A DNA stretch of 64,000 nt from Candidatus Eiseniibacteriota bacterium (GTDB taxonomy: Bacteria > Eisenbacteria > RBG-16-71-46 > JABDJR01), in the NCBI GenBank assembly GCA_963762255.1, contig CAVXKA010000002.1:864001-928000 (forward strand), written 5' to 3'. The notes below the pieces were generated by a model. It had not been told where the DNA came from and ran no database searches. It saw only the letters and a program-made list of their open reading frames with translations. The first letter of the stretch is position 1. Each line of letters opens with the position of its first letter. Position numbers and translations under genes: made by a program. Positions 35,422 to 54,362 of the stretch are shown here, piece after piece.

Positions 35422-37053
35422 CTAGGAGGGCGAGACCTTCACCCAACGCCCGTCGTTCTTGGGATTCAGCACGCCCTGATGCTTGATGTAGTTGCGCAGA
35501 ACCTCCAGGTCGGTGAATCCGGTGTACATCAGATCCTCGGATTGGAGCGCCTCGCGCAAGACGCCCATCCCGCTGTTCCCCTCGGCCAGGTAGTTGGTCA
35601 TGGCCACCTTGTAGATCTTCTCATCCTCTACAGGCTGACCGCCGATCGTGAACTCCACGATCCGGCTTCCGTCCGGCCGCGAAATGTCGTACGCGACCTT
35701 GCCGCCCGAGATGAAGATTCCGCCGGCGGTCCCGCGGAGCTTGTCCTCCATCATGCCGCGCAGCATCTGGCCTTTCAGATTCACGAGCACCATCTGATTG
35801 CCGAAGGGAGACACGCCAAGCAGGTGGCGCTCCGTGATATCGCCGGGAGAGATGTCCGCGCGCACGCCGCCCGTGTTCTGGATGGCGAAGTCGGCGTTGA
35901 GCTCGACCCGGAAGGCGTCCGCCATCACGAACCCCATGAGCGCGTTATTGGCCGACCCGCGCTGCAACAGCACCTCGGTCTGGCCGACCACGACATCGAG
36001 ACCCGCTTCGGCCTTGCTCACCTTCTCTTCGATGACCTTCTCCATGGCGGGGTCCGGCCAGATCTGCTCCTCGAACAGGGTGACCAGCGACCCGCGATCG
36101 GAGTGGGTCCGGTAGCCGATCATCTGCTTCGTGTTGCGATCGATGAGCATGGTGATGTGCCCGATGCTCGACCCGTTGCCGTAGGGTTCGAACACCACCG
36201 TGTGGGTGCGCGGATCCTCCCACGGCGTGTCGTAGCCCTGGTGGGTATGCCCGGTGAACATGGCGTCGATGCCCGGCGTCGTGTATGCGAGTTCCATCGC
36301 ACTCATGCCCCAGTGCGGAAGACCGCCTTCGGCATCGCGCTGCAGCATCTTGCGGTATTCGTTGCTCAACTCCGGCTTGTAGGGAAGCCCTGTGTGCAGG
36401 AGCGCAAGGACGACGTTTGCCCCCTGTGCGCGGACCCGCTCGACCTCGGGACCAAGCACCTCGTGGATGGGAGCGAACTCGATCCCTTCCAGGTTCTTTC
36501 CGAACGACATGTTGGCGGTGGACTCGGTGATGAATCCCACAACCGCGATCTTGATCCCGTCGACCTCGATGAAGAAGCTCGGGTCGATCCAGTCGACGGT
36601 CTTCTTGGTCTCGGCGTAGAGGATGTTCCCTCCCAGCACCGGGAAGTTGGCCATCTCGGCCAGACGCTTGGTGTTCTCCCACCCGAGGTCGAAATCGTGG
36701 TTGCCGAGCACGCAGGCCGTATACCCCATGTCGTTCATGAACTCGAAGATCGCGGTCCCCTTGGTGTTGGTGCCGAGCGGCGTCCCCTGGAAGATGTCGC
36801 CGTCGTCGAAGAGGAGCACGGCGCGCCCTTCCTTGGCCGCCTTGTCGCGAACGTCCTTGACGTAAGCGGCAATGCTCGCGCCCCCGCCCAGCGGCGGCGG
36901 GAAATTGGGATTCAGGAACGTAGCGTCGTCCTTGGAGATGTGCCCGTGGACATCGCTGGTGAAGAGGATGTCCACCTCGAGCAGATCGCTTGCGGGGATC
37001 GCCCCTCCCAGAAAGAGAAGACCGATGAGGCAAAGTGGGATGCATCGCTTCAT
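35422..37053 (-). CDS. Secreted 5'-nucleotidase/UDP-sugar hydrolase
   Basis: Signal peptide; SDVHG, DDGD, GNHDFD, GHTH; C-terminal NTGGVRA...PFGN...YLAEG domain. Confidence 0.92.
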   Translation of the reverse strand: MKRCIPLCLIGLLFLGGAIPASDLLEVDILFTSDVHGHISKDDATFLNPNFPPPLGGGASIAAYVKDVRDKAAKEGRAVLLFDDGDIFQGTPLGTNTKGTAIFEFMNDMGYTACVLGNHDFDLGWENTKRLAEMANFPVLGGNILYAETKKTVDWIDPSFFIEVDGIKIAVVGFITESTANMSFGKNLEGIEFAPIHEVLGPEVERVRAQGANVVLALLHTGLPYKPELSNEYRKMLQRDAEGGLPHWGMSAMELAYTTPGIDAMFTGHTHQGYDTPWEDPRTHTVVFEPYGNGSSIGHITMLIDRNTKQMIGYRTHSDRGSLVTLFEEQIWPDPAMEKVIEEKVSKAEAGLDVVVGQTEVLLQRGSANNALMGFVMADAFRVELNADFAIQNTGGVRADISPGDITERHLLGVSPFGNQMVLVNLKGQMLRGMMEDKLRGTAGGIFISGGKVAYDISRPDGSRIVEFTIGGQPVEDEKIYKVAMTNYLAEGNSGMGVLREALQSEDLMYTGFTDLEVLRNYIKHQGVLNPKNDGRWVKVSPS

Positions 37054-38396
37054 TGCGGAATGACCTCATCCTCCGCCGGCATGGCGGGGGCGTAATTGAC
37101 GGGCGCGTAGTGCACGCTCTGGGAGAGCGCCACCGAGACCTCGTAGCTCACGCCATCGGTGGTCAGGGTGACGTTGTAGCCCTTGTCGTTCGTTAGGCGA
37201 AGGCCGAGAGGCTCGGCGCGGTCGGAGGCGTAGATGTCGGTGCGGTGGTTACGGAGTCGGATGAGCACCGATTCGCTCGGTAGCGTTCCCAGGCTCGACT
37301 CGTACGTGGTGATGGGAATGAGCCCCACCCGCGGGTTGACCGCGTTCACCCAATCGGCTGGGCTGCTGTCGTCGAGGCCGTGGTGATGGACTTTGAGCAC
37401 TTCGGTGTCGATGGCGCTTCCCTTGGCGGCGGCGATGGACGTGGTCACGGGGGCCTCGGCGTCTCCCCCCAGCATCAGATTCACGTCGCCATAGGTGAGG
37501 CGCAGGATCACGGAGTCGTTGTTGAGGACGTCTCCCTCGCTCACTCCGCCGAAGGTGCTGCCGTAGCCGGAATTGAGCACTTCCACACCGACCGACCCGT
37601 CCCATACGAGGGCGGACGTGCCACTGGAGGTGTCCCCGGCGCGAATGGTGTCGATGGGAACCGACTTGGCGCGCAGGGTGGGAAGGAGTTCGTCCCGATA
37701 GCTGCGGTAGGCGTAGGAGTTCATGTCGGACTTGAGCGGCGTGTCCAGAAAGCGCCCGATGTCGTAGGCCCCGAGAACCCCGTCGGAGAGCGTGTAGCTC
37801 TCGCCGACGAGCCCGCCGATATGGTCGCTGTGGACATGCGTGGCCATGGCCACGTCCAGACGGCTCACCCCCGCCGCTTGGAGGTAGGCGTCCACGTTCG
37901 CCCAGTCTCGGCGTTCACCGCCGTCGATGATGATGCGCTTGCCCGTGTTCGGCATGGTCAAGATATGCGAGTCCCCAAAACCGACGTCGATCATGGTCCA
38001 ACTCAGGAAGGGCTTCGGCGCCGGCCGAGTCCCCACCGTGAACGAGACCTCGTCGGCCGTCACGACACCACCGTTCTGGGCTCGATCCAGAACCTGCAGG
38101 TAGATCTTCTCTCCCTGGCTCACCGAGAGGAGCGGTACCCGGTGCTCGGTCGCGTACGCCAAGTCGGCGCGCGCCGCCGAGGCCGGATAGGCAACCCGGT
38201 TGTAGACGCCCGACGACGTGCCGTACCGAACCGATCCCAGGGTGGGCTCGTCGGTACTCCATCTCACCGTGTTCCCCTCCAGAGTGATCCCGTCCTGGAC
38301 GGGCACCTTGAGCGGACTGGGGCTGGAACACCCTATGAACCAAGCCAAAGCCGCGGGGAGCAACGCCCCCGTCAGCCGCTGCAATATCGATCTCAC
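37050..38396 (-). CDS. Lipoprotein: Fn3/PAP-N-like domain plus ComEC/Rec2-type metallo-beta-lactamase fold
   Basis: FIGC lipobox; IDVGFGDS, IDGG, THVHSDHIGG, NNDS, GDAE, KVHHHG; no ComEC membrane domain. Confidence 0.85.
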   Translation of the reverse strand: MRSILQRLTGALLPAALAWFIGCSSPSPLKVPVQDGITLEGNTVRWSTDEPTLGSVRYGTSSGVYNRVAYPASAARADLAYATEHRVPLLSVSQGEKIYLQVLDRAQNGGVVTADEVSFTVGTRPAPKPFLSWTMIDVGFGDSHILTMPNTGKRIIIDGGERRDWANVDAYLQAAGVSRLDVAMATHVHSDHIGGLVGESYTLSDGVLGAYDIGRFLDTPLKSDMNSYAYRSYRDELLPTLRAKSVPIDTIRAGDTSSGTSALVWDGSVGVEVLNSGYGSTFGGVSEGDVLNNDSVILRLTYGDVNLMLGGDAEAPVTTSIAAAKGSAIDTEVLKVHHHGLDDSSPADWVNAVNPRVGLIPITTYESSLGTLPSESVLIRLRNHRTDIYASDRAEPLGLRLTNDKGYNVTLTTDGVSYEVSVALSQSVHYAPVNYAPAMPAEDEVIPQ

Positions 38397-38438
38397 GCTG
38401 TACGAGTCTCCTGGGGCAGGCGATGCCAGACGGCGATG

Positions 38439-39704
38439 CTAGAACCCGTAGTCCACACCCAGGGAAACCCGGAACAGCGTGTCGTCAACACGGTCCTGGC
38501 CAAGCCCCACGTAGGCGCCCTGCTCCGTGCGCGGGCGGATGGGGGTCTGGCGCGTCGACGCCTTCCCCACCTCGGCGGCCAGATCGATCCTGAACTGCTC
38601 GACCAGATAGCCGAACCCGAAGGTGAACGTCACCCGGTCGGCCTCGTCCATGGCGTACGACTGCCCGTAACGGAAGCCGATGCGCCCGGGGAGGTTGTTG
38701 TAGAAGACGTGCTCGAGACCGAAGCGGCCTTCCCACGTGTCCTGTAGCTTCTGGTCGGGGCTCAGATGGTCGGCGATCTCCGACCAGGGCGTGTACACCA
38801 CATCGGCGGCAAAGACGGTCTGGAACGCATTGCGAGGCCGGTAGGTGAGCCCTCCCTGGAAGCGCATGGGAAGCTCGAGATCGCCGCTCGACTGCTCGGG
38901 CGAGGTCACTGCGCCGTCGGTCCAGGTCGTGTAGTCATCGTTCAGCGACGGTTTCGTCTCGATCGCCGCACCGACCCGCAGCCGCTCGTCCACGTACACG
39001 TTGGCACCCACGGTCACCGAGAAGCCGTCCAGCTTGCGCTCGAGCTTCGCCTCGGTGGCCGAGCCGTAGTCGCTGGTGGCCAGCGAGACGAGGGCCTCGC
39101 GGTTGGTCAGGGTGCCGAAGTAGTAGTTCACCGCAACGCCCAGACCGGATCCGTCTCCGAATGGGAGCGCCACGCCCAGAGTGGCGGTGCGGAGCAACCC
39201 GTCGGTCTTGATGATCTTGTTGTTGCGCAGCGTGTCGCTGCTGTCGCTGGTGCGCAGCTCGTCGAAGTAGTCGTAACGGGGATCGTAGCGTGTGAACACG
39301 CCCCCCGACACGATCACGCCCCGCCCCCCCCAGTGATCGAGCACCACACCGCCCTGGAGCTCGCCGTAGCCGTTGTCGTTGACCGCGACCGCGGTCTCAT
39401 CGACGAACGAATCGAAGGTGTCGAACAGCGGCACGAGCCGGCTCTCGCTGGCCCGGGCCATTGCGCCCGTGAACTGCACGCGGTTGCCGCGCAGCAGGAC
39501 CAGGTTGGCCGGGTTGTCCACCAGGCTGAACACTCCGTCGCTCATCGCCGCACCCGCCCCTCCCATCGCACGCGAGCGCGCGGAGAGTCCGAGTTGCGGT
39601 GTCCCGTAGGCGCGATCCAGGAAGGAAAACGCGCTCGCCGGCCGGGCGGACACAAGGACCGCCGCCGCCAGCACTATCGTCAAGATGCCTCGCCTCATGC
39701 TCAT
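38439..39704 (-). CDS. Outer-membrane beta-barrel, FadL/PorV-like
   Basis: Signal peptide; SARSRAMGG...NPANL hatch motif; amphipathic strands; ends VDYGF. Confidence 0.75.
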   Translation of the reverse strand: MSMRRGILTIVLAAAVLVSARPASAFSFLDRAYGTPQLGLSARSRAMGGAGAAMSDGVFSLVDNPANLVLLRGNRVQFTGAMARASESRLVPLFDTFDSFVDETAVAVNDNGYGELQGGVVLDHWGGRGVIVSGGVFTRYDPRYDYFDELRTSDSSDTLRNNKIIKTDGLLRTATLGVALPFGDGSGLGVAVNYYFGTLTNREALVSLATSDYGSATEAKLERKLDGFSVTVGANVYVDERLRVGAAIETKPSLNDDYTTWTDGAVTSPEQSSGDLELPMRFQGGLTYRPRNAFQTVFAADVVYTPWSEIADHLSPDQKLQDTWEGRFGLEHVFYNNLPGRIGFRYGQSYAMDEADRVTFTFGFGYLVEQFRIDLAAEVGKASTRQTPIRPRTEQGAYVGLGQDRVDDTLFRVSLGVDYGF

Positions 39705-39729
39705 TCTCCCGCGAGTTCAGGCCCGGAGC

Positions 39730-42405
39730 CTAGAACGAGTAGTCCAGTTGGAACCGGTAAGAAGTCTGCTCCCCCCGCGCATCCGTGCCATCCGGGGTCG
39801 GCGATATCAAGTCGCCGAAGTTCCGGATGTCCACGTAAGAGCGAGGAAGCTGGTGGTCGGCGGTCCACTTGAGCCGCCAGGAAAGATTCTCCGAGAGCCG
39901 GCTGCGGAGCATGAACCAGTTCCGGAAGCCGTTTCCGTCGAGTACGACGAACTCGTTGTCCTCGAAGTTGTACAGGAAGCCGTCGTAGACCTCCGCCGAC
40001 ACCGTGGCGGTCAGGAAGTCGCTGAAGTTGTGCGTGAAGGTCGCCTGCACCGCCTTCGCCGGAATCCCCCGCGACCCCACCTGGTTGGTGCTCGTGTTGC
40101 CGCCATCGGCAGGGGCGCTGAGCCGAGGCCGGTCGGCAAACGTCACGTTGGTGGTCGAGTAGAGGAATCCCATCTGGTCGTAGTTGGAGAGATTGACCCG
40201 CATCTCCAACCGCGTGTCCCAGGACTGGAAGGCGCGGATGTCGTCCGGCCGCTGGTCGTGCCGGCCGGAAATCCGGTGACGAATGCGGAATCGCACCGGG
40301 AACACGGGCCGGTACTCCGCGCGGATGGTGAGTCGCTTCAGGTCCGCGCCGTCCGCCTTGCGGGTATAGGTGTCGTATTCGAGACCGGTCAGCGTGAAGG
40401 CCCGGGTGAACTGGTAGCGGGTGCTGAAATACCAGCCCTCCTCCGCCTTGGGAGAGGGGTCGTTGTACGCCGTGTAGCTGTACAGGGGATTCCAGAGCCG
40501 GAAGGGGTTTCCATCCATCAGCGTCTGCTGGAATTTGGAGTTCTCCGAGAACGCCCGGTTGTAGGGATTATCGTATCCCAACGAATAGTTCCGGTAGAGC
40601 GCCAGGAAGTTGAAGTTCTCGTACTGGATGTACCCGTTGGCGATGAAGGCCTCGGGGCCGTAGGAGAAGATCCGCTTGAGCGCGCTCTCCTCGTCCGAGG
40701 TCTCCAGCTTCCCGTACTCCGCGGCAAGGGACACGTTTTCGAACACCGTGGATCCCTCGGCGCCCCAGATCCGGCGATAGGGCCCGAGATCGGTGCTGTT
40801 ATACCGCGCGTAGAGTTCGGAGTCGCGGTCTTCCAGACGTGTCGCCGGCTGCATGACCAGCGACGCCGGATCGGGATTCCAACGCCGGGCAGCGTTGTCA
40901 TGGTAGAGACGGTTCCGGTAGTTCATGTCGAGCCCGGTGAGGCCGACGTAGGTCCCCGGACGGAACTCGTACTTCACGTTTCCGCCGGTGATCTGCTCCC
41001 TCATCACGTCCCGCATCGGCGTGTAGTACTTCGATTCCCGATGGCCCTTCAAGAGACCGGCGTCGATGTCGGCGCGGATCCCCTCGAGGAAGTCGTTCGA
41101 CACCCGCGGCATCATGGTGATGTAGGAGTTGAACGAGCCGTCCGGGTTGAGGATCGCGTCCTTGTCGTCCAGGGAGTAGAAGAACGTCCCCCGGACGTGG
41201 CCCAGGGTTCCCTCCAGAGCCGTCCCGCGCAGCGTGTACTCGTCGCTGCGGGAGATATCACCGCGAATGCCGACCGCCCGCACGTTGTAGCCGGAGCCGG
41301 TGCGTCGCGGCATGAAGAAGTCGGTCGCATCCATGATGAGGCCCTGACCCAGAGTCACCGCGTAATTGCCCACCACCGCCTTGTGGAGCTGGAACTTGCC
41401 GAAGGGGGTCGAAACCGGGGCGTAATCGCCGAGTTCGACATAGGCCTTGGCGGTCTCGTCCCAGTTCTCCTCGCCCAGGTTGCGATGGGCGATCCCCCCG
41501 GCCTTCAAGTGCCGGCCGTAGCGCAGGCGCAGCTTGTTGGTCATATAGGGGTCGCTGGCGCCCAGGTTCATCCGTCCGGCGAAGGTGTTCTCATCGAAGT
41601 TGCGGAGGTTCGCCCTTTGCTCGGCGGTCAGCGAGTTCGACTCGCTGGTGCTGATCGTGGCCTGGACGTTCTCGGTGAGCGCATCGTAATCGTCCAGTGT
41701 GTAGGGCGTGTTGTACACGCGGAACTGGTAGTCCCCCGAGAACCGCGTCTTGGTCTCCTCGGGATCGTCGTAACGGATGAAGTCCCGCAGGTTGCGGAAA
41801 CCCCAGTAGGTGACGCCGCTCGCCGACCGGAGCTGACGCATGTTCTCGATCTTGCCGGCGAGACTGCGCTCGCGCAGCATCGCCACCGCGTCCACGGGAG
41901 ACACGTTCTGGTAGGAGACGAGATCGTAGTAGTTCAGGCGGTTGACGTTTCGAGGGTCCTTGATCTGGTCCACATAGTCGTCAACCAGCCCCTCGCTCGC
42001 CCCCTCCTCGGAGAGGAACCGCTGCACGACGTAGTAGCGCTCCTGGGCGCGTCGTTCCTCCTCGCGCATGTCCTCCTGCTCCAACTGGAAGATCGGGGTG
42101 ACCACCACCAAGGGCCGGAGGGTCTCCAGCATCTGGGGGGTGACTCCCTCCACTTCGAGCAGATCGAAGAGGCTATTGAAGTAGGCGCGGTACTTGCGAT
42201 GCTCGTACATCGCCTCGGCCACGCTGGCGGGGATGGGCAGGGTTTTCAGCGCGTCCAGCGACGCGTGGTTGATGTCGATCTGGTGCTCGCCGCTGATGGA
42301 GGTTCCGGTGTCCGCCGTGCCCTGAGCGCGCAGGACGCCCGGAGACAGCGCGGCCGCCGCCACCACCGCGGCAGTGAGGATCAGTCTTCGTCGCAGACTC
42401 AACAC
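39730..42405 (-). CDS. Outer-membrane barrel protein with two N-terminal ComEA-like helix-hairpin-helix modules
   Basis: AGGAGG RBS; signal peptide; IDINHAS...FNSLFDLLEVEGVT and NVN...LRSASGVT; long beta region ending FQLDYSF. Confidence 0.8.
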   Translation of the reverse strand: MLSLRRRLILTAAVVAAAALSPGVLRAQGTADTGTSISGEHQIDINHASLDALKTLPIPASVAEAMYEHRKYRAYFNSLFDLLEVEGVTPQMLETLRPLVVVTPIFQLEQEDMREEERRAQERYYVVQRFLSEEGASEGLVDDYVDQIKDPRNVNRLNYYDLVSYQNVSPVDAVAMLRERSLAGKIENMRQLRSASGVTYWGFRNLRDFIRYDDPEETKTRFSGDYQFRVYNTPYTLDDYDALTENVQATISTSESNSLTAEQRANLRNFDENTFAGRMNLGASDPYMTNKLRLRYGRHLKAGGIAHRNLGEENWDETAKAYVELGDYAPVSTPFGKFQLHKAVVGNYAVTLGQGLIMDATDFFMPRRTGSGYNVRAVGIRGDISRSDEYTLRGTALEGTLGHVRGTFFYSLDDKDAILNPDGSFNSYITMMPRVSNDFLEGIRADIDAGLLKGHRESKYYTPMRDVMREQITGGNVKYEFRPGTYVGLTGLDMNYRNRLYHDNAARRWNPDPASLVMQPATRLEDRDSELYARYNSTDLGPYRRIWGAEGSTVFENVSLAAEYGKLETSDEESALKRIFSYGPEAFIANGYIQYENFNFLALYRNYSLGYDNPYNRAFSENSKFQQTLMDGNPFRLWNPLYSYTAYNDPSPKAEEGWYFSTRYQFTRAFTLTGLEYDTYTRKADGADLKRLTIRAEYRPVFPVRFRIRHRISGRHDQRPDDIRAFQSWDTRLEMRVNLSNYDQMGFLYSTTNVTFADRPRLSAPADGGNTSTNQVGSRGIPAKAVQATFTHNFSDFLTATVSAEVYDGFLYNFEDNEFVVLDGNGFRNWFMLRSRLSENLSWRLKWTADHQLPRSYVDIRNFGDLISPTPDGTDARGEQTSYRFQLDYSF

Positions 42406-42414
42406 GACCGCCTC

Positions 42415-43335
42415 CTACTTCCCGGAGGAGAGGACATAGCTCACACCGAACTGGTGGGTGGCCTCGAGGGTGCCCCCCCCAGTGGAGAAGCCGTAGTCCA
42501 CGGTGATGCCGTATTGGCTGATGCCGACACCGGCGGTGAAGATACTGGGCTCCGAGCGGATGCCGGCGCGCAGGCACAGGTAGTCGTTGACCTCGAACTC
42601 GGTCCCGCCCCGGAACTGGAGCGGATCGCCGAGCGTGCTCGAAATGTCGAGCGCGGTGGTCACGCCCTTGTAGGGCACGTAGGCCACCCCCGCTCCGACG
42701 CGGCGGATCAGGTCTTCCTTGTCGGTCTTGCCGATCGTGGGGTTGTTCATGTTGAGGGCGTAGAACCCCACGCGGGTGCGGTTGTAGATCGTGGCCTGCG
42801 CGGAGAAGTCGACGCCGAACGCCGTCGCGTTGCCGGGATCGATCCCGGTGCCCGGCTGGCCAGGATCCACATCCACGCTCATCCCGTAGTCCAGGTGGTA
42901 GATATTGATCCCCCACCCCGCCGCGAGCGTGCTCTGCATGTCCTTGAGAAGCTGGAACCCGTGCGCGAGGCTGATCGTGGTTTCCCCGGTCAGGTTCTCG
43001 CCTCGGTAGTCGACACCGAAGTGTCGAACACCGAGTCCCACGCCTCCGAACCGGCCCGCGCTCATCGTCCCCGAAGCCACGATCTGCTGCGAGAAGTCGT
43101 AGCCGAACGGCCTCACGAAGGAGGCCGCGACCGCAGGACCACCGGTCCAGGCGAGCGAGGCGGCGTTGTGGAACGGCGCGTACGCGTCCGCGGGGAGCGC
43201 GCTGAACGCACCGCCCAGCGCACGCGCCCGCGGGGACACCTCCAGATCCTCGAAGGCGGCAAAGGCCGGCGCCGCCGCAGCGAGGAGAGCCAGACCCACC
43301 AGGGCCGGCATCAGTCGTCTCCAGTTCGTCTTCAT
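42415..43335 (-). CDS. PorV/PorQ/PorP-like T9SS-associated beta-barrel
   Basis: Signal peptide; PRARALGG...HNAASL; LRAG...VDYGF...THQFGVSY pattern; 306 aa. Confidence 0.75.
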   Translation of the reverse strand: MKTNWRRLMPALVGLALLAAAAPAFAAFEDLEVSPRARALGGAFSALPADAYAPFHNAASLAWTGGPAVAASFVRPFGYDFSQQIVASGTMSAGRFGGVGLGVRHFGVDYRGENLTGETTISLAHGFQLLKDMQSTLAAGWGINIYHLDYGMSVDVDPGQPGTGIDPGNATAFGVDFSAQATIYNRTRVGFYALNMNNPTIGKTDKEDLIRRVGAGVAYVPYKGVTTALDISSTLGDPLQFRGGTEFEVNDYLCLRAGIRSEPSIFTAGVGISQYGITVDYGFSTGGGTLEATHQFGVSYVLSSGK

Positions 43336-43348
43336 CTTGTCGCCCCCC

Positions 43349-46300
43349 CTAGTCCAAACGCACGGAGACGACGATCGGGACCTGCTCCCGGCGGATCGTT
43401 CCGTCCAAGCTAGTAGTCATGAGATGGCAGATGTAGAGCCCGGCGCGGACGAACTCGAAAGTCTCGTCCCGGCCGTTCCACTTGAGCGTCCTCTTGGCGC
43501 CTGCCCCGTCGTAGAGCACCCTGACCACGCGCCCCTGCGTGTCGAAGACCCGGCACGTCGCCTTGGCCGAGCCCTCCGAGTTCATCTTGATCTCGATTGC
43601 CTGCTCGGCCCCGTTCGGCATCACGTAGCCGCGCAGCAGCGTGCGAGCGGCCACATCGAGGAGGCCCTCCTCGACCACAGCGGCCCCGGCAGTGAACTGG
43701 ATGATGGACCCGGCGACGATGGGGTTGCCGGCCAGATCCTGCACGTTGCTTACCTGAACGGTGTAACTGGTGCCGCCAACGAGGCCGGAGGCCAAGGTCA
43801 AGGTGACCTGACTCAGCGAGACCGCCGCCGAGCTGACGGCGATGGGCGAGGCGGGAGTGGCGGTCGGATAGACCGAGTAGTTCGCCGCCGTCGTGGCGCC
43901 GGCACCCAGAGCCTCCGAGAACACCACGGTGACGGCCCTCGAGTCAGCCGCGCCATTCGCCGAGGACAAGGTCGGCGGCGTCGTGTCGCCGGGTCCGCCC
44001 CCCTTCGAGAACTCGTCGGAGTGGCCCACGCCGATCTGGTAGGTCGTCGTCGAACCACTGCCGAATGCGCTGCCGAACCCGGCAGCGGTCACCACGTCGC
44101 CCGAAGCGAAATTGGCGGCAACGACCCCGGACGCGTTGCGCACCCGGAAGATGATGTCGCCCGCCGTATAGTTGTAGTTGCTGCTGCCCGAGGCCGACGG
44201 CGCCGCGGTCAGCGTCGCCGTGGTCCGGATGTAGGTCCCCTCCCAGGCCGCGGACTTCATCTGCGGCACCGTCAGGTCCTTCGGCGCCAGCCTCGGAACA
44301 CCGGACGCGATCAAGGTCGCCGTGTACCCGGTGATCTCGGTCGTCGTGAAGTAAAGCTCCACCACGCCCGTCACCTTGGCCACGTTGCCGCGGTCATCCA
44401 GCGCCGACTTGATGCTGCCACCGAACACGTTCAAACCTCGCCCGGAGCCGTCCTGGATGAACGCGCTCGTCGTCGTTCCGTTGCTCGAAGCGGTCACGTA
44501 CACCTGACCGATCATCGTCAGCGTCTGGGCGGCGAACCCGGATGGGTTGCCCTGGATCGTGGCGATGTTCGTTACGGTCTCGGCTACCGTGGAGAAGCTG
44601 GCAGTGCCGCCGGTCAGCGCGCCGCCGGTAAGGCTGGTCACCCCGCTCACCGTCAGCGTGTACGCCGTGCTCTTGGGCAGCGCGGCCGAGCGTCTTGATG
44701 ATCGCGGTCTGACCGTTCTCCTGCAGCGTCACCGAGGCGATGCTTAGCGACGGGGTGAAGCTGTAGTTGGCCGCCGTCGTCGCTTGGGCCGCGTTCACCT
44801 TCTCCGAGAACGCCACGCCCACGTAGTCGTTCCCGAACTGGAAGGCCGCCACCACCTGGATCGTCGTGCCGCCACCGCCGCCGCTCGTGAAGGCTACCGT
44901 CGAGTTGGCGGCGATCGGGTTCCCGGCCGCGTCCTGGACGTTGCTCACCTTCACCGTGTACGCGGTCGAGGCCGCAAGCGGCGACGCCAGCGTCAGGGTT
45001 ACCGTGGAGCCGGAGAGCGACGCCGAGCTGACCGCGATGGTCGATGCCGGAGTGGCGGTCGGATAGACCGAGTAGTTCGACGCCGTCGTGGCGCCGGCAC
45101 CCAGAGCCTCCGAGAACACCACGCTCACGCTGGTCGAACTCGCCGAGCCCGACGCGGAGACCAGGGTCGGCGGCGTCGGGATCGGGGCCGCTCCCCTTCG
45201 CAAAGTCGTCGCTGTGACCCACGCCGATCTGGTAGGTGAGCGATGACCCGCTCCCGTACGCGCTTCCGAACCCGGCCGCGGTCACGACGTCACCCGACGC
45301 GTAACTGGAGGCGTTGATCCCCGCCGCGTTACGCACCCGGAACGTGATGTCACCCGCAGGATAGTTGTAGTTGGTCGACCCAGAGGCCGACGGCGCCGCG
45401 CTCAGCGTCGCCGTGGTCTGGATGTACGTCCCTTCCCACGCCGCCGACTTCATCTGCGCCACCGTCAGCACCTTCGGCGCCAACTTCGGCAATCCCGACG
45501 CGATCAGGGTCGCCGTGTACCCCGTGATCTCGGTCGTCGTGAAGTAGATCTCCACCACGCCCGTCACCTTGGTCACGTTCCCACGGTTGTCCAGCGCCGA
45601 CTGCACGGCGCCGCCAAACACGTTCAGTCCACGACCGGAACCGTCCTGGATGAACGCGCTGCCCGTCGTCCCGTTGCTCGACGCGGTCACGTACACCTGA
45701 CCGATCATCGTCAGCGTCTGCGCGGCAAACCCGCTCGGGTTCGCCTGGATCGTCGCGATGTTCGTCACGGTCTCCGACACCGTCGAGAAGTTCGCGGTCC
45801 CGCCGCTCAGCGCGCCGCCGGTGAGGCTGGTCACCCCGCTCACCGTCAGCGTGTACGCCGTGCTCTTGGGCAGTGCGGCGGACGTCTTGATGATCGCGGT
45901 CTGTCCGTTCTCCTGCAGCGTCACCGAGCTGATGGTCAACGACGGGCTGAAACCGTAGTTGGCCGCCGTCGTCGCCTGGGCCGCGTTCACCTTCTCCGAG
46001 AACGCCACGCCCACGTAGTCGTTCCCGAACTGGAAGGCCGCCACCACGGAGAACCCCGTGCTGACGCTGCCCGTGGCGAAGGCCACCGTCGAGTTGGCCG
46101 CGATCGGGATCCCGGCCGCGCTCTGGACGTTGCTCACCTTCACCGTGTACGCGGTCGAGGCCGCAAGCGGCGACGCCAGCGTCAGGGTTACCGTGGAGCC
46201 GGAGAGGGCCGCTGAGCTGACCGCGATGGTCGAGGCGGGAGTGGCAGTCGGATAGACCGAGTAGTTCGACGCCGTCGTGGCGCCGGTTCCCAGAGCGTCC

Positions 46301-48441
46301 GAGAACACCACGCTCACGCTGGTCGAACTCGCCGAGCCCGACGCGGAGACCAGGGTCGGCGGCACGGGATCGGGGCCGCTCCCCTTCGCAAAGTCGTCGC
46401 TGTGACCCACGCCGATCTGGTAGGTGAGCGATGACCCGCTCCCGTACGCGCTTCCGAACCCGGCCGCGGTCACGGCGTCACCCGACGCGTAACTGGAGGC
46501 GTTGATCCCCGCCGCGTTACGCACCCGGAACGTGATGTCACCCGCAGGATAGTTGTAGTTGGTCGACCCAGAGGCCGACGGCGCCGCGCTCAGCGTCGCC
46601 GTGGTCTGGATGTACGTCCCTTCCCACGCCGCCGACTTCATCTGCGCCACCGTCAGCACCTTCGGCGCCAACTTCGGCAATCCCGACGCGATCAGGGTCG
46701 CCGTGTACCCCGTGATCTCGGTCGTCGTGAAGTAGATCTCCACCACGCCCGTCACCTTGGTCACGTTCCCACGGTTGTCCAGCGCCGACTGCACGGCGCC
46801 GCCAAACACGTTCAGTCCACGACCGGAACCGTCCTGGATGAACGCGCTGCCCGTCGTCCCGTTGCTCGACGCGGTCACGTACACCTGACCGATCATCGTC
46901 AGCGTCTGCGCGGCAAACCCGCTCGGGTTCGCCTGGATCGTCGCGATGTTCGTCACGGTCTCCGACACCGTCGAGAAGTTCGCGGTCCCGCCGCTCAGCG
47001 CGCCGCCGGTGAGGCTGGTCACCCCGCTCACCGTCAGCGTGTACGCCGTGCTCTTGGGCAGTGCGGCCGAGCGTCTTGATGATCGCGGTCTGTCCGTTCT
47101 CCTGCAGCGTCACCGAGCTGATGGTCAGCGACGGGCTGAAGCCGTAGTTGGCCGCCGTCGTCGCCTGGGCCGCGTTCACCTTCTCCGAGAACGCCACGCC
47201 TACGTAGTCGCTCCCGAACTGGAACGCCGCCACCACGGAGAACCCCGTGCTGACGCTGCCCGTGGTGAAGGCCACCGTCGAGTTGGCCGCGATCGGGTTC
47301 CCGGCCACGTCCTGGACGTTGCTCACCTTCACCGTGTACGCGGTCGAGGCCGCAAGCGGCGACGCCAGCGTCAGGGTCACGTTTGCGCCCGAGCCGGAGG
47401 CCGCAGACGCGGCGCTTACCGTGATCGTGCTGCTCGGGCTCGCGGTCGGATACACCGAGTAGTTTGCGGTTGTCGCCGCACCGACGCCCAACTGCTCCGA
47501 GAACACGACGGTCACGTGGTCGAAGTCGCCGAGCCCGACGCGGAGACCAGAGTGGGAGCCGTGGTGTCCGTGGATGTCTGCCCCGGCGGCACGCCCGTGG
47601 TGTTCGTGGAGAAGGTCGAGGCGAGGTTCTCGCTCGTCTCGTTGCGTCCACCGACACCGTTGCCGCCGGTCATCGTCTGAGTGCCTTCGGCGTCGTTCGT
47701 ACGGATGAAGGTACCGGTCCCGGAAAGTGTGGCCTGCGAAGCCAGCGGCGTATCCGCCAGGTAGGCGGTCGGCGTCGAGTCGGCGTCGGGGCCGTCGATC
47801 GAGATCCCCGTCTTGTCCACGCCCGCCGATGTCGCCGTCCCCCACAGCACGTAGTCGATGTCGGTCACCAGATCCGAAGCGCCGTCCCAGTAGAACAGGA
47901 TGACCACTTCACTGGTGTTGGAGAGCGTCGGAGTCGTGCCGGTCGCCCCCGGGTCCTTGATCGAACCCGCGCGCGCGGGGCGCATGTCCGGCACGCCGTC
48001 CGCAGCGGCCCCATCCTCGAACATCTCGAAGTTGGGCAGCTTGCCGTACGCGGCCTGGAACCCCGCACTTCCCAGCACCGAGATCGAGAGCTCCTGCCCC
48101 GGCTGGATCGTCGCGCCAGCGGGGAAGCGCGCAACGAAGTCGGTGAAGAGGCCACCGCCGATCAGCTTCGTCGGGTCGGGAAGGTTGTAGTAGTACTGGC
48201 TCCCGCTCGCGAAGGTGGCGTCGGTCAGGTAGTAGTTCGAGAGATCGACGGCCACGCTCCCCGGATTCTTGATCACGATGTACTCGTTGGGAGCCGTGAT
48301 CCCACTGCCTCGAATCTCAACCTGGGAGATCAGCAGCTTCGTCGGCGTCTGCGCGAGGCCGAGTGAGGGAAGAAACAAAGTGAGGGCGAGAATCGCCGTG
48401 ACGAGCGTCAGGCCCGTCGTGATACGGGATCGCATCAGCAT
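43349..48441 (-). CDS. About 1,696-aa secreted protein: lamin-tail domain + 3x[Ig-Ig-OB-OB] + Ig + FlgD/T9SS-like CTD; interrupted by 4 single-base indels
   Basis: Consecutive ORFs 47512..48492, 46538..47845, 44653..47031, 44394..45203 and 43349..44650 join via indels at ~47516 (-1), 47071, ~45178 and 44690 (+1 each), located by comparing repeat copies. ISQV...EYIVIKN...VDLSNYYLTD (LTD); FIQDGSGRGLNV...VTGVVE (OB). Confidence 0.75.
43995..47560 (-). repeat. Three tandem ~1,188-bp (396-codon) intragenic repeats
   Basis: 45181-45880 and 46369-47068 are nearly identical at an offset of 1,188; the third copy is more diverged. Confidence 0.9.
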
Positions 48442-50582: not shown

Positions 50583-50621
50583 GCTACCGGCCTCACGCGC
50601 GTCGCGCCATCCGTGCGCGCA

Positions 50622-50655
50622 GAAAAAAGAGGGGGTCGGTTGCCCGACCCCCTCT
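50622..50655 (-). terminator. Rho-independent terminator
   Basis: 12-bp stem AGAGGGGGTCGG / CCGACCCCCTCT with a GCAA loop and a T-run on the minus strand. Confidence 0.85.
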
Positions 50656-50679
50656 CGCGGAGCGTGATCCGCCGAGATT

Positions 50680-52856: not shown

Positions 52857-53720
52857 TCAGGTTGCCGCGATTCGGGGGATGAGCGCCTCGATGAATCGGG
52901 TGAAGGTCTCCCGGAGACGCGAAGTCACTTCCATAACCTCGCCGTGGGAAAGGGGCTCCAGCGAGAGGCCGGCGGCCCGGTTGGAGATGCAGGTGACACC
53001 CAACACCTCCATTCCCAGGTGCCTGGCCACGATGACCTCCGGCACGGTGGACATGCCCACGGCGTCTCCCCCGAGGCGACGCGCCATGGCGACCTCGGCC
53101 CGCGTCTCATAGGTGGGTCCGAGGTTCCCCCAGTAGGTGCCGGCCCGCAGCCCGCAGAGCCCTCGTTCCGCGGCAACCTCGAAGCCTATGGCCAGGAGGC
53201 GCTTCGAGAAGGGCTCGGCCAGATCCACGAAACGATCCGCATCCACAAGAGGACCCCGGCCGCGCAGGGGGCTTCGAAACTGGAAGTTCACCTGGTCCTC
53301 GATGAGCATCAGGTCCCCGGGATTCAGGCGTGGGTCGACCCCGCCGGCGGCGTTCGTCACCACCAGCGCGCGCGCGCCGAGGGCATGCATGACGCGCAGC
53401 GGGAAGGTCACCTGGGCCGCCGAGTACCCCTCGTACAGATGGAAGCGCCCCTGTTGGGCGGCGACGGGGACGCCGCCGGTCTGCCCGAGGACGAGCCTGC
53501 CCGCGTGCCCCTCCACCGTGGCAACAGGGAAGCCCGGCAGATCGCGGTAGTCCACAGCGACCGGCGCGGTGAGGGTGTCGGCGAACCCGCCGAGGCCGGA
53601 GCCCAGGATGAGCGCAACGCGTGGGACGACTGGCGTGCGAGCGCGGATCACCTCCACGCACCGGGCGATGTCCGCCGGCGTGAATCCGATGCTGTCCGCA
53701 TCGCGGAATCCGGCGCTCAT
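52857..53720 (-). CDS. punA: Purine nucleoside phosphorylase (trimeric type)
   Basis: ILGSGLG, GHAG, GRFHLYEG, TNAAGG, GPTYET, VGMSTVPE motifs. Confidence 0.95.
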   Translation of the reverse strand: MSAGFRDADSIGFTPADIARCVEVIRARTPVVPRVALILGSGLGGFADTLTAPVAVDYRDLPGFPVATVEGHAGRLVLGQTGGVPVAAQQGRFHLYEGYSAAQVTFPLRVMHALGARALVVTNAAGGVDPRLNPGDLMLIEDQVNFQFRSPLRGRGPLVDADRFVDLAEPFSKRLLAIGFEVAAERGLCGLRAGTYWGNLGPTYETRAEVAMARRLGGDAVGMSTVPEVIVARHLGMEVLGVTCISNRAAGLSLEPLSHGEVMEVTSRLRETFTRFIEALIPRIAAT

Positions 53721-54343
53721 CGCGCCTCCCGGAGCATGCTCCGCACTTTGGTCACAAGGAGATCGACGGCGACTCGGTTTCGCCCACCCTCGGGAATGAT
53801 GATGTCGGCGTAGCGCTTGGAAGGTTCGATGAACTGGAGATGCATCGGGCGCACGCTCTCTTCGTACTGTTGGAGGATCGATTCCAGGCTTCTCCCCCGC
53901 TCCATCGTGTCCCGGCGGATGCGCCGGATGAGCCGCACGTCGGGGTCGGTGTCGATGAACACCTTGATGTCCATGAGCTTTCGGAGCGCGGGATCCTCCA
54001 ACACGAGGATCCCCTCCAGCATGATGACGCGGTGCCCCTCCACGCGCACCGTCTCCGGCAGGCGGGAGTGGTGGGTGAAATCGTACGTGGGCTTCTCGAT
54101 CGGCTGGCCGCGCAGGAGCGCCTCCATGTGATCGAGGAGAAGCTCGCGGTCGAAAGCGTCGGGATGGTCGAAGTTGAGCTTCGCCCGCTCTTCTATGGTG
54201 AGGCCGGCGAAGTCCTTGTAGTAGGAATCCTGCTCGATCATCACGACCTCTCGCGAACCCAGGTTCTCGATGAGGGTGGATGTGACGAGGGACTTCCCGG
54301 AAGCGGAGCCGCCGGCGATGCCGAGAAGAAGGGGCCCTTCCAT
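53717..54343 (-). CDS. udk: Uridine kinase
   Basis: GIAGGSASGKS, QDSYY, NFDHPDAFD, RRIRRDTMERGR, KRYADIIIP. Confidence 0.96.
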   Translation of the reverse strand: MEGPLLLGIAGGSASGKSLVTSTLIENLGSREVVMIEQDSYYKDFAGLTIEERAKLNFDHPDAFDRELLLDHMEALLRGQPIEKPTYDFTHHSRLPETVRVEGHRVIMLEGILVLEDPALRKLMDIKVFIDTDPDVRLIRRIRRDTMERGRSLESILQQYEESVRPMHLQFIEPSKRYADIIIPEGGRNRVAVDLLVTKVRSMLREAR

Positions 54344-54362
54344 GACGTCCTGTCCTGCTTTC

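Follow-up and report, generated by a model that had tools for sequence, protein, structure and literature searches.

A conserved outer-membrane gene cassette that may couple type IX surface tethering to the scavenging of extracellular nucleic acids

The window analysed here is a stretch of 64,000 nucleotides from an uncultured soil bacterium of the Eisenbacteria, and between positions 35422 and 48441 its minus strand carries six reading units. These encode, in order, a giant repeat protein that we call the cargo, a 306-aa barrel (B306), an 891-aa barrel with ComEA-type HhH domains, a 421-aa barrel (B421), a metallo-beta-lactamase (MBL) lipoprotein and a 5′-nucleotidase. From the ORF coordinates the intergenic gaps in this direction are 13, 9, 25, 42 and −4 nt, exactly the spacing originally described. 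Read by eye, the translations of all six proteins have an N-terminal basic and then hydrophobic stretch, in accord with the export signals assigned to them before, and that of the MBL protein has a lipobox-like FIGC as well. In profile searches none of the cluster proteins matched a pilin, a secretin, the ComEC channel domain or a TonB-dependent receptor, which bears out the description of a locus lacking both pilus and secretin parts and SusCD/TonB parts. The genome does encode, at other places, a ComEC competence domain along with three secretins and four TonB-type barrels.

The original prediction had staked itself on conservation of gene order, and such conservation is found. A relative is encoded at 490 loci. 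We examined the best 80, spread over at least five FCB candidate phyla, and limited each count to loci with enough flanking sequence. Their taxon labels are Eisenbacteria (7), Krumholzibacteriota/-ia (25), Fibrobacter(aceae) (16), Gemmatimonadota-type (3), Latescibacterota (1), Zixibacteria (1) and Saccharimonad-type (2), with 25 unlabelled. Among these best 80 of 490, B306 is adjacent in 76/76 and B421 in 69/69, the 5′-nucleotidase lies within 3.5 kb in 58/58, and a C-terminal sorting domain (CTD) end is encoded upstream in 69/71. Where there is room on both sides, 44 of 45 loci have the full gene set. The core order is cargo, PorV/PorQ-like barrel of ~300 aa, ComEA-HhH barrel of ~24 strands, FadL/BamG-like barrel and 5′-nucleotidase, and it recurs in six relatives, all from the same family or order, with the MBL gene as an optional member before the nucleotidase. 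The related loci are kin, and so not independent. From this recurrence, the order of the cluster is beyond chance.

The cargo gene (43349..48441; this and all further features lie on the minus strand) was delineated from its frames, its repeats, LTD and Big_5 profiles and its intact state in relatives. The conceptual product of ~1,696 aa comprises a signal peptide, a lamin-tail domain, three repeats of Big_5, Big_5 and tandem OB, another Big_5 and the CTD; Pfam recognizes several of the Big_5 domains. An N-terminal piece (47518..48441) holds the signal peptide and lamin-tail module (LTD PF00932, 1.2e-8, 35.8 bits, over cut-off). At the other end the CTD (43352..43693) is FlgD_ig/Por_Secre_tail-like (FlgD_ig 1.8e-3, Por_Secre_tail 4.4e-3, both under their cut-offs), and in the alignment it is kept across every cargo type. 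The array between them has three units of ~1188–1195 nt each, the first two being 100% identical over at least 300 nt, with no differences across ~600 nt of alignment.

The tandem-OB segments lie at 46420..47022 (unit 1, 99.5% identical to unit 2 by tblastn), 45232..45834 (unit 2, which was modelled with an AF2 pLDDT of 80.8) and 44039..44641 (unit 3, 85.6% identical to unit 2). Sequence searches with the repeat unit gave no Pfam or PDB support for the OB label, but the structural model backs the original reading. It superimposes on RPA (Z 12.4, rmsd 1.6 over 83 aa) and on p204 HIN-dsDNA (Z 11.1), with Z 9.1 for the second OB, and the best Foldseek matches are p204 and p202 HIN, including 4jbm. 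The modelling therefore supports a tandem-OB, HIN-like fold of nucleic-acid type for the repeat. The structure 4jbm was also used for DdbD of a Bacteroides DNA-utilisation locus, a protein of the HIN/tandem-OB fold class (PMC12478041). In most distant loci the repeated unit is instead the lamin-tail module, in 2–6 copies, and 38 of 53 loci among the best 80 of 490 have cargos with lamin-tail repeats and no OB unit. In the nuclease Xds the lamin-tail domain is not needed for nuclease activity or for localisation to the membrane, and its role is given as unknown (PMC6746945).

The giant had been taken for a single gene, and in this assembly it is not one ORF. It runs in one frame from 48492 to ~47517 and is then interrupted by four 1-nt changes (−1, +1, +1, +1). 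By alignment of the units, the first (47516..47517) lacks one base present in repeat copies 2 and 3, and the second (~47067..47072) has an extra base at a CTCGG site. The third (~45176) is one extra base, and the fourth (~44686..44691) is an extra base in repeat copy 3 at a CTCGG site as in the second. The cargo could thus be a decaying pseudogene, leaving the cassette non-functional in this genome whatever its role elsewhere; the CTCGG insertion recurs in two repeat copies, and a 95%-identical protein of another assembly likewise ends out of frame at such a site. We consider this unlikely, though it is the most serious of the alternatives. The remaining cluster genes and a 1909-aa neighbour are all intact, and in five relatives the cargo gene is a single open frame of 1376–1810 aa from stop to stop. 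Protein P0270 (95% identical) reads through the second change, and P0268 (90–92% identical) through the third and fourth. The extra base at 47071/47072 is absent from contigs of four runs from four studies, although these contigs may stem from relatives or other repeat copies; the first change lies outside the stretches that the contigs cover. Near-identical 1.2-kb repeats are moreover a classic site of assembly consensus errors.

B306 (42415..43335) is a PorV/PorQ-like barrel and a putative dedicated anchor for the cargo. It matches PorV_fam (1.3e-14, 54.6 bits) without reaching the cut-off of 90, and is also below the PorP cut-off. Complex prediction of the barrels with the CTD had been proposed as a check, and for the pair of CTD and B306 it gave an ipSAE of 0.81 in three of three runs, against 0.00 for the best of three controls, with a partner pLDDT of at least 73 and contact agreement between runs of at least 80%. 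In calibration the docking mark was reached in 58 of the 80 solved complexes and in 2 of the 110 mismatched pairs, rates that are rough here, where our own alignments were used. The pass may echo likeness to solved PorV–cargo complexes. The prediction supports docking of the CTD on B306, and fits the tethered binding protein of the original prediction.

The genome has further type IX parts, namely SprA over cut-off, a PorU-like protein of 402 bits and seven PorV_fam proteins over cut-off. A link of the cassette to type IX secretion, which had previously been missed, forms part of the overall reading towards which we lean. Known attachment pairs of type IX systems include PorV–PorU, PorQ–PorZ and SprF–SprB. 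Here too a CTD cargo has beside it the gene of a small barrel, FadL-like and of the PorV family, on which the CTD is predicted to be held. Unlike those pairs, however, the barrel does not reach the cut-offs of PorV_fam and PorP, and the pair sits in a fixed five-gene cassette with two more barrels.

The 891-aa protein (39730..42405; HHH_3 2.1e-13, 50.6 bits, over cut-off) consists of a signal peptide, HhH-type domains at aa 40–103 and ~146–215, and a barrel from aa ~220 to 891 ending in DYSF. In the AF2 model (pLDDT 79.5, pTM 0.76) the barrel has ~24 strands by DSSP. ComEA is the periplasmic DNA receptor of competent bacteria, and the HHH_3 domain at aa 40–103 has a modelled fold near-identical to that of ComEA 8dss (Z 11.9, rmsd 1.0 over 64 aa, 34% identity). 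Unlike ComEA, the domain is fused to a large barrel, and the protein falls below the ComEA family cut-off (TIGR01259, 31.6 vs 152 bits). The G-h-G hairpins of domain 1 are lost, with P-I-P and G-[V/M]-T in place of the ComEA GIG, and its net charge has a median of −4 (range −9 to +1) over 30 aligned members; domain 2 is about neutral. Of the DNA-binding HhH barrel first proposed, the ComEA likeness thus stands by sequence and model, while the lost hairpin signature and family-wide acidity of domain 1 speak against the binding. The barrel itself aligns with the FimD and PapC usher pores (Z 14.6 and 14.4), barely above unrelated barrels (Z 12–13), and structure comparison found no specific relative. 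Arginine makes up 61 of 676 residues in all but fills 15 of the 60 invariant barrel columns (hypergeometric 9e-5).

B421 (38439..39704), which adjoins the HhH-barrel gene, belongs to the FadL superfamily and is BamG/PorV-like, with all profile matches below cut-offs: Toluene_X at 28.1 bits is just below 29.7, the BamG model, with a cut-off of 250, gives 80.9 bits and in the genome search 65.6, and PorV_fam gives 43 bits. BamG of the Bacteroidota BAM complex is a FadL-like barrel that docks to another barrel and to a surface lipoprotein (PMC12611786). B421 shares its superfamily and has BamG as its best curated profile, and is the best match to that model in the genome; it differs in scoring far below the cut-off and in being always encoded in the cassette and not with bamA. 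The analogy with PorV and BamG makes B421 a probable adaptor, docked on the large barrel or holding a lipoprotein.

Two genes encode candidate enzymes. The MBL lipoprotein (37050..38396; Lactamase_B 3.1e-6) resembles the ComEC MBL region in its C-terminal part (TIGR00361 3.7e-17). It had been counted among the hydrolases of the system. Its gene is present in 16 of 58 loci and missing from 42, among the best 80 of 490, and because of this it is accessory. The UshA-family 5′-nucleotidase (35422..37053) has a signal peptide and matches 5_nucleotid_C (3.6e-34) and Metallophos (4.5e-11) over cut-offs. Judged from the family names of the profile matches, UshA-family enzymes also take UDP-sugars, NAD and cyclic nucleotides.

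This substrate range would allow an explanation with no role for nucleic acids at all: a generic type-IX cargo with dedicated anchoring or biogenesis barrels, in which the HhH domains are protein–protein modules and the nucleotidase is co-inherited, working on UDP-sugars, NAD or nucleotides. The degenerate hairpins and acidity of the HhH domain are consistent with this, as are the known adaptor role of FadL-like barrels in the superphylum (BamG, PMC12611786), the position of B421 as top BamG-model match, and the housekeeping genes that surround the cassette in eight distant loci. We nevertheless think it improbable. The tandem OB/HIN-like, lamin-tail and ComEA-type folds are known from extracellular nucleases and from DNA receptors, the variable accessory genes (ComEC-type MBL and PHP) encode phosphoesterase-type enzymes, and B421 reaches only 65–81 bits against the BamG cut-off of 250.

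The functional block reaches upstream of the six genes originally delimited, to include 48564–52596 and the nucleoside genes at 52857–57584. Next to the cargo gene lies that of a lipoprotein-like protein of 672 aa with a C-terminal PHP metallohydrolase region of CehA/McbA type (48564..50582; NF038032 4e-12, under cut-off), which is upstream in four of five full loci of relatives and was undetected in locus L018 (L019 is too short). It is preceded by the gene of a 638-aa type-IX CTD protein (50680..52596; TIGR04183 9.1e-9, over cut-off) with weak ExeM/NucH-N-terminal (NF033681 4.4e-4) and DUF5689 (3.7e-3) similarity, which has the motif IQD..G.G.NVF in common with the OB unit (E 0.004). Between the two genes a terminator-like hairpin of 13 pairs and then a T run (50627..50656), from a consensus scan whose site total was not above shuffles, suggests that the transcription unit starts at the 672-aa gene. 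Pfam identifies the genes at 52857..57584 as encoding a nucleoside phosphorylase (PNP), uridine kinase, adenosine deaminase and amidohydrolase, with a BMC shell protein and aldehyde dehydrogenase past them on the same strand. Eisenbacteria have, upstream of the cassette and on its strand, nucleoside-catabolism genes and a deoxyribose-phosphate microcompartment; the nucleoside genes adjoin the cassette in L014–L018 and L029, an adjacency seen within Eisenbacteria only.

Most likely, the gene set tethers a putative DNA-binding protein on the cell surface beside an unusual membrane pore and a nucleotide-cleaving enzyme. We modestly favour a type-IX-linked, TonB-independent outer-membrane cassette that would scavenge extracellular nucleic acids or nucleotides. 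On this view stray DNA would be fed on in a new way. The cargo would be exported by the type IX system of the genome and tethered on B306 as a multivalent DNA ‘fishing line’. Captured DNA would be cut by the ComEC-type MBL lipoprotein in loci that have it, by other nucleases encoded elsewhere and, in this genome, possibly by the PHP lipoprotein. The large barrel might then let oligonucleotides or DNA ends through independently of TonB. Its even number of strands and the periplasmic C-terminal aromatic signal would put the HhH domains at the mouth that faces the periplasm. The 5′-nucleotidase would strip phosphate so that nucleosides can enter the cell, to be consumed in Eisenbacteria by the upstream nucleoside genes and microcompartment.

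A number of observations count against scavenging. HhH domain 1 is degenerate and acidic, and the large barrel has no specific structural relative. The sole in-locus nuclease candidate, MBL, is absent from most loci (42/58), and a Pfam scan of the 10-kb flanks of eight distant loci found no other nuclease families. Most cargos (38/53) are lamin-tail only, and DNA binding by that domain is putative. To these are added the substrate range of the UshA family, the restriction of nucleoside-gene adjacency to Eisenbacteria, and the broken cargo gene here.

Some of the same features would suit a surface adhesin or matrix module, with the tethered OB/lamin-tail protein serving as a scaffold for biofilm or attachment by binding eDNA or some other polyanion, the barrels doing no more than anchoring and assembling it, and the nucleotidase trimming or remodelling matrix nucleotides or yielding nucleoside signals. 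The long Ig-spaced (Big_5) repeats of variable copy number are adhesin-like, stable docking on the PorQ-like barrel is predicted, most loci are without a nuclease, and eDNA is treated in the available literature as a biofilm component. Yet the 5′-nucleotidase is coupled in 58/58 loci, the universally coupled ComEA-like barrel would be superfluous for an adhesin, and nucleoside-catabolism genes share the strand in Eisenbacteria. We judge an adhesin to be improbable.

Riemerella anatipestifer provides a model for yet another role, pilus-independent uptake for natural transformation. Its transformation genes RA0C_RS04920, RS04915 and RS02645 combine a surface protein of DUF5689/OB type with a barrel in the outer membrane and a DNA-binding HhH protein (PMC8459023), and are in these respects like the cassette. 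The cargo would catch dsDNA, the HhH barrel would bring it to the periplasm, acting as ComEA does behind a secretin, and the ComEC encoded elsewhere, whose competence domain the genome does have, would import one strand. DNA utilisation and transformation are evolutionarily related according to the ddb study (PMC12478041), and DUF5689 proteins with an outer-membrane transporter serve both in Bacteroidota (PMC12478041, PMC8459023). In Riemerella, however, the HhH protein is separate, with HhH at aa 236–301, and predicted to be periplasmic, the barrel is TonB-receptor-like, and the system serves transformation with ComEC, DprA and ComF (PMC8459023). In the cassette HhH and barrel form one polypeptide, and the partner enzyme is catabolic. 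The tie to a nucleotidase, and in 16/58 loci to a nuclease-type MBL, is to enzymes that destroy DNA; dprA, comF and comEC were not seen in the flanks of eight distant loci, and the three secretins of the genome would serve a conventional route. Transformation is thus in our view the least probable of these roles.

The scavenging that we prefer has parallels in secreted nucleases. LTD, OB and nuclease domains co-occur in DNA-degradation loci and nucleases (PMC8289736, PMC6746945), and the ExeM, NucH and Xds nucleases and the Izemoplasma ‘DNA-degradation loci’, which act on extracellular DNA, resemble the cassette in having lamin-tail and OB domains on secreted proteins and 5′-nucleotidases as a downstream step. 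Unlike ExeM, NucH and Xds, the cargo lacks a nuclease (EEP) domain and has its putative binding modules multiplied instead.

A nutritional outer-membrane system for DNA has a precedent in the ddbABCDEF locus, with which Bacteroides thetaiotaomicron utilises DNA (Sharan et al. 2025, PMC12478041). Both are outer-membrane loci, that of ddb being dedicated to exogenous DNA and the cassette probably so. Both place a HIN/tandem-OB-like surface protein (in ddb the DNA-binding DUF5689 protein DdbD) beside an outer-membrane barrel, and both include secreted or periplasmic phosphoesterases, with nucleosides or nucleobases as the products, presumptively so for the cassette. The cassette differs in having no TonB-dependent transporter of the DdbC type, and no plug or carboxypeptidase-regulatory domain; its barrel represents a new family, of ~24 strands, and carries fused ComEA-like HhH domains. 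Its putative binding protein is a type-IX CTD cargo on a PorV/PorQ-like barrel, where that of ddb is a lipoprotein cap, and its conserved enzyme is a 5′-nucleotidase and not a nuclease. It is found, moreover, in other phyla, the Eisenbacteria, Krumholzibacteriota and others.

Six genes form a tight cluster on the minus strand of the window, which we refer to as the cassette. The first is the cargo, a long repeat-rich coding region running from 43349 up to a start at 48441, and it is followed in turn by B306, a 306-aa PorV/PorQ-like barrel (42415-43335), the 891-aa HhH-barrel protein (39730-42405), B421, a 421-aa barrel of the FadL superfamily (38439-39704), a 448-aa metallo-beta-lactamase (MBL) lipoprotein (37050-38396) and a 543-aa 5'-nucleotidase (35422-37053). 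On balance the best-supported reading of the cassette is the scavenging of nucleic acids or nucleotides. The intergenic gaps given in the original prediction, 13, 9, 25, 42 and -4 nt, are the values obtained from the ORF coordinates. Reading the translations by eye, we find a basic stretch and then a hydrophobic stretch at the N-terminus of all six proteins, with a lipobox-like FIGC in the MBL protein. The layout and spacing of the predicted cluster stand, but the giant cargo as one ORF does not, and the observation is confirmed only in part, because the cargo gene is broken in this assembly by four frame changes. The G+C content of the window is 67%, in a genome of 4.1 Mb in three contigs; positions 1-2000 of the window have a G+C fraction of 0.54, compared with 0.63-0.72 across the rest.

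Three-frame translation coupled with alignment of the repeat units places the frame changes, all on the minus strand, at ~47516/7 (-1), ~47067-47072 (+1), ~45176 (+1) and ~44686-44691 (+1). The array comprises three units of ~1.19 kb, defined by a repeat search and our own alignment of the units; Tandem Repeats Finder gave no match in the array because the repeat period is greater than 500 nt. We treat the four breaks as private to this assembly, because the gene is a single open frame of 1376-1810 aa in five relatives, because two homologous proteins read through some of the sites, and because contigs lacking the extra base exist. The metagenome protein P0268, 90-92% identical to the cargo, continues through frame changes 3 and 4, and P0270, 95% identical and from another assembly, continues through frame change 2, yet has an out-of-frame tail of its own. 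One base fewer is found at 47071/47072 in contigs from all four of four public runs, belonging to four studies and 90-99% alike, which could derive from other copies of the repeat or from relatives. For the breaks, recent decay and a consensus error among near-identical repeats are equally likely sources. The same one-base CTCGG insertion occurs at 47067-47072 and 44686-44691, so that two of the three copies lose the frame, and P0270 goes out of frame at an equivalent site; the insertion could stem from slippage, from a consensus error of a systematic kind, or from a real mutation spread by gene conversion.

Pfam searches reveal a lamin-tail domain (35.8 bits) and Big_5 Ig-like spacers in the cargo. 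The three 200-aa units gave no usable Pfam match and no PDB sequence match, and their identity as OB folds is therefore seen from the structure model only. One unit, modeled from 12 sequences (pLDDT 80.8), is a tandem OB fold that aligns with RPA (Z 12.4, rmsd 1.6 over 83 aa) and with the p204 HIN-dsDNA structure (Z 11.1), the second OB lying at aa 119-201 (Z 9.1). The top Foldseek matches are the HIN domains of p204 and p202, each bound to dsDNA. At the other end of the protein, the final 114 aa resemble FlgD_ig and Por_Secre_tail sorting domains (CTD) below the cut-offs (18.7 and 17.7 bits, each less than 27); cargo homologues in two distant loci score 29.6 bits (L098) and 26.9 bits (L097) with FlgD_ig. 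The genome encodes a type IX translocon and attachment components, with SprA over cut-off, seven PorV_fam proteins over cut-off, a PorU-like protein at 402 bits, slightly below its cut-off of 420, and dozens of CTD-type tails.

B306 scores 54.6 bits against PorV_fam (NF033709, cut-off 90 bits) and 49.5 bits in the genome search. By the curated cut-off, B306 and B421 are relatives of the PorV/PorQ family and not members of it. When B306 (aa 27-306) was modeled together with the last 95 aa of the cargo, ipSAE was 0.81 in three of three runs, while the best of three controls gave 0.00. The partners had a pLDDT of 73 or more, the runs agreed on 80% or more of contacts, and the interface takes in the conserved C-terminal tail. 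The docking mark was reached in calibration by 58 of 80 solved complexes and by 2 of 110 mismatched pairs, and is a rough guide here as our own alignments were used. B306 is predicted to hold the cargo CTD; this result may reflect likeness to known structures, because PorV-type barrels with cargo have already been solved.

The only family in the 891-aa protein is HHH_3 (PF12836; aa 40-100, 50.6 bits with a cut-off of 27), and for the other 790 aa Pfam gave no family even at E up to 5. The AlphaFold2 model, made with 30 relatives (pLDDT 79.5, pTM 0.76), comprises two helical HhH-type domains and a barrel of ~24 strands, with an aromatic final residue. An even strand count with a C-terminal aromatic signal is the usual topology of such barrels, and because both are present the HhH domains would lie at the periplasmic mouth. 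Residues 40-103 superimpose on ComEA (8dss) with Z 11.9, rmsd 1.0 over 64 aa and 34% identity; the protein scores 31.6 bits against the ComEA family TIGR01259, below the 152-bit cut-off. In place of the G-I-G of ComEA the hairpins of the first HhH domain read P-I-P and G-V-T, so that the canonical G-h-G is absent, and the net charge of the domain is acidic, with a median of -4 over 30 members. The degenerate hairpins and the acidity speak against the scavenging reading.

The best structural matches of the barrel are the usher pores FimD and PapC (Z 14.6 and 14.4, rmsd 4.7-5.2 over 368 aa); a Pfam search of the barrel found no family. Many unrelated barrels trail at Z 12-13, and no specific kinship can therefore be claimed; Foldseek (TM at most 0.30) and VIA-align likewise returned generic barrel matches and no specific family. 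Arginine occupies 15 of the 60 invariant barrel columns, more than its general share of 61 in 676 residues (P about 9e-5). This is a small hint of a lumen that handles a phosphate-rich substrate, and internal salt bridges would account for it equally well. The 891-aa family accounts for 677 of 1.84 billion cluster representatives at E up to 1e-3 and for 102 at 1e-30; where members carry a name, it is no more than 'helix-hairpin-helix domain-containing' or 'ComE-like'. The sole other HhH (ComEA-like) match to the protein in the source genome (G000:C3:135928-136110) lies inside a 633-aa open frame. In a protein atlas, clusters from Bacteroidota that bear the name ComEA/HhH and are 529-585 aa long come up as candidate kin (score 0.95); ten mid-range representatives that were looked up suggest that the short ones are fragments.

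B421 belongs to the FadL superfamily, with matches to Toluene_X (28.1 bits) and PorV_fam (43 bits) that are both below cut-off. Against the BamG model NF053685 (cut-off 250 bits) it scores 80.9 bits, and 65.6 bits in a genome-wide search for BamG, in which it is yet the top match; with both scores far below the cut-off, B421 was dropped as the BamG of this organism. FadL-like barrels of this superphylum serve as docking adaptors, as the available part of the BamG report describes (PMC12611786), and because of that precedent we read B421 as a probable adaptor.

The C-terminal half of the MBL protein matches the MBL region of ComEC (TIGR00361, 3.7e-17), and in the ComEC models the match is confined to this C-terminal region (aa 291-388 to 562-656 of 663). 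The protein contains no match to the competence channel domain (PF03772), and the ComEC of the genome is encoded elsewhere, outside the cassette. The nucleotidase matches 5_nucleotid_C (118.6 bits) and Metallophos (44 bits) over cut-off and is placed in the UshA family; it scores 187.7 bits with the UshA equivalog model, below the 600-bit cut-off. Its metallophosphoesterase motifs, identified by eye against what we take to be those of the family, are present. UshA-family enzymes have several substrates, which counts against the scavenging reading. Open frames of ~1,100 aa bear the nucleotidase in two distant loci, L077 (13814-17089) and L033 (13739-17074). The first has about 570 extra C-terminal residues without a family, and the second carries the nucleotidase domains in its C-terminal half; such lengths may come from fusion, for instance to the MBL gene, or from ORFs called too long.

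Among 40 same-class relatives, full-length copies of the 891-aa protein are found in six of seven genomes of the family and in both genomes of the sister family, while the other 31 relatives gave HhH-only matches and no full-length copy. Six relatives' loci have the order 638-aa CTD protein, 672-aa PHP protein, cargo, B306, HhH-barrel, B421, (MBL), nucleotidase. When one genome per species was scanned, 490 loci encoding a relative of the 891-aa protein were recovered; the best 80 of them were examined, with neighbors counted only where there was enough flanking sequence. Within these 80, a B306 homologue is the immediate upstream neighbor of the HhH-barrel in 76 of 76 loci and a B421 homologue its immediate downstream neighbor in 69 of 69. 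The nucleotidase comes after them in 58 of 58, the end of a cargo CTD is close upstream in 69 of 71, and the set is complete in 44 of 45; because the genomes are kin, the counts cannot be taken as independent. An MBL gene separates B421 from the nucleotidase in just 16 of the 58 loci. Submitters' labels for the examined loci are Eisenbacteria, Krumholzibacteriota, Gemmatimonadota, Latescibacterota, Zixibacteria and Fibrobacteraceae bins. The interpretation in the original prediction is supported in part, by the fixed gene order and the OB folds; its DNA binding, hydrolysis and import are still inference, and the MBL protein is not part of the core.

The CTD is conserved in all cargo types. Of the 53 cargos for which 6 kb upstream was available, 38 have lamin-tail modules alone, 10 have OB units alone, four have both and one has neither detectably. 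That most cargos have lamin-tail modules only counts against the scavenging reading, and in the accessible part of a report on Xds the lamin-tail domain is not needed for either nuclease activity or localization (PMC6746945). The cassette might also be a module that anchors cargo and has no nucleic-acid role. The degenerate, acidic HhH domain would suit such a module, which we nevertheless consider unlikely given that the OB and lamin-tail domains of the cargo and the ComEA-type fold occur in extracellular nucleases and DNA receptors.

Two further genes on the minus strand precede the cargo. The 638-aa protein (50680-52596) has a type-IX CTD, weakly resembles DUF5689 (3.7e-3, below cut-off) and the stretch of ExeM/NucH that is N-terminal and non-catalytic, and shares an IQD..G.G.NVF motif with the cargo OB unit; in all probability another DNA-binding protein of the surface is encoded here. 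The 672-aa protein (48564-50582) has a lipobox-like N-terminus, a C-terminus of the CehA/McbA-type PHP metallohydrolases (46 bits, below cut-off) and a weak CarboxypepD_reg match, also below cut-off. It adjoins the cargo on the upstream side in four of five full relatives' loci (L014-L017), was not detected at L018, and may be a phosphoesterase or nuclease belonging to the block. A consensus scan placed a strong terminator-like hairpin at 50656-50627, between these two genes, and found none comparable from the 672-aa gene to the nucleotidase; a promoter scan gave no excess over shuffles.

Further upstream on the same strand are genes for a nucleoside phosphorylase, uridine kinase, adenosine deaminase and amidohydrolase, and then a microcompartment shell and aldehyde dehydrogenase. 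The nucleoside genes adjoin the cassette in Eisenbacteria loci L014-L018 and L029, and none was found within 10 kb of it in the distant loci. Eight distant loci are flanked by housekeeping genes (Mrp/ParA-type ATPase, sulfatase-family protein, AAA_2/ClpB-type ATPase, PTS EIIA), and their flanks contain no further conserved nucleic-acid gene. In Krumholzibacteriota-type loci (L033, L036, L042, L077, L089) a divergent sulfatase/phosphodiesterase-family gene and an upstream Mrp/ParA-type ATPase lie on one side, with an AAA_2/ClpB-type ATPase (by Pfam domains only) or a PTS EIIA gene downstream. On the other side of the cassette in the window, a 1909-aa lipoprotein-like gene (29689-35418, minus strand) begins ~3-90 nt after the nucleotidase, depending on the start chosen. 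Presumably of the alpha-2-macroglobulin type, its product matched no family in an NCBIfam search; the gene is syntenic in the closest relatives (L014-L016, L019) and not in L017 or L018.

Computation shows the folds and the constancy of gene order, and predicts that the cargo docks on the barrel. In a scavenging cassette, the type IX system would export the cargo and B306 retain it, and the OB units would capture DNA. The MBL and PHP proteins, or nucleases encoded elsewhere, would cut the DNA, and the fragments would pass through the large barrel. The nucleotidase would then dephosphorylate them, and the nucleosides would be taken up and catabolized. The only nuclease candidates within the loci are the ComEC-type MBL and the PHP-type protein, and the absence of a nuclease gene from most loci counts against this scheme. 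The same OB units, tethered at the surface, could instead belong to an adhesin module that binds eDNA; with a nucleotidase so constant beside them, such a module is improbable in our estimate. Scavenging is still our preferred reading, and a bolder form of it we hold only tentatively, as rather doubtful. The 891-aa protein might found a new class of TonB-independent outer-membrane nucleic-acid channels, the arginine-lined barrel passing DNA ends or oligonucleotides that the periplasmic HhH domains draw in. The OB/lamin-tail 'fishing line' on the PorQ-like barrel would feed this channel, and the FadL-like adaptor would complete a three-barrel DNA-foraging machine in Eisenbacteria, Krumholzibacteriota, Gemmatimonadota and their allies.

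Soils and sediments hold much phosphorus, nitrogen and carbon in the form of extracellular DNA. To our knowledge the ddb locus, described in 2025, is the only outer-membrane DNA-utilization machinery described, and it is TonB-dependent and confined to Bacteroidota. We lean toward the cassette being an outer-membrane DNA-utilization locus built on a family without a described function. If so, several abundant uncultured FCB phyla reach extracellular DNA by different parts, and a function is provided for a family annotated only by its helix-hairpin-helix domain, with relatives at 490 loci. Type IX biology would gain a cargo-specific PorQ-like anchor, and Eisenbacteria the missing uptake end of the adjoining nucleoside and deoxyribose-phosphate microcompartment pathway. 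In the literature, mostly outside subscription journals, we found no account of the cassette or of the HhH-barrel fusion.

The cassette shares with ComEA the HHH_3 domain and a near-identical modeled fold, but not the family score or the G-h-G hairpins, and with ComEC the MBL part only. A transformation route, in which the ComEC encoded elsewhere would import a strand, we think very unlikely, because the nucleotidase and, in the loci that have it, the MBL protein would destroy DNA. The Riemerella protein RA0C_RS02645 is predicted to be periplasmic, with an HhH domain at aa 236-301 (PMC8459023, available part). Compared by that published description, its HhH position and periplasmic prediction led us not to equate it with the HhH-barrel architecture.

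The nearest known system is ddbABCDEF of Bacteroides thetaiotaomicron, which in the available part of its description comprises secreted nucleases, the TonB-dependent DdbC and the DUF5689 protein DdbD (PMC12478041). Its authors relate the locus to transformation genes of Riemerella (PMC12478041; PMC8459023, each as available), and liken the DdbD model to p202 HIN bound to dsDNA. The cargo OB unit has no DUF5689 match, and its model matches the p202/p204 HIN-dsDNA structures as reported there for DdbD. Family searches of the six cassette proteins found no TonB_dep_Rec, Plug or CarboxypepD_reg. As far as the ddb account available to us extends, the two systems share their logic and, by the model, a HIN-like binding fold. 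The cassette is without the defining TonB transporter, and differs in having HhH domains fused to its barrel, tethering in the style of type IX cargo and a nucleotidase.
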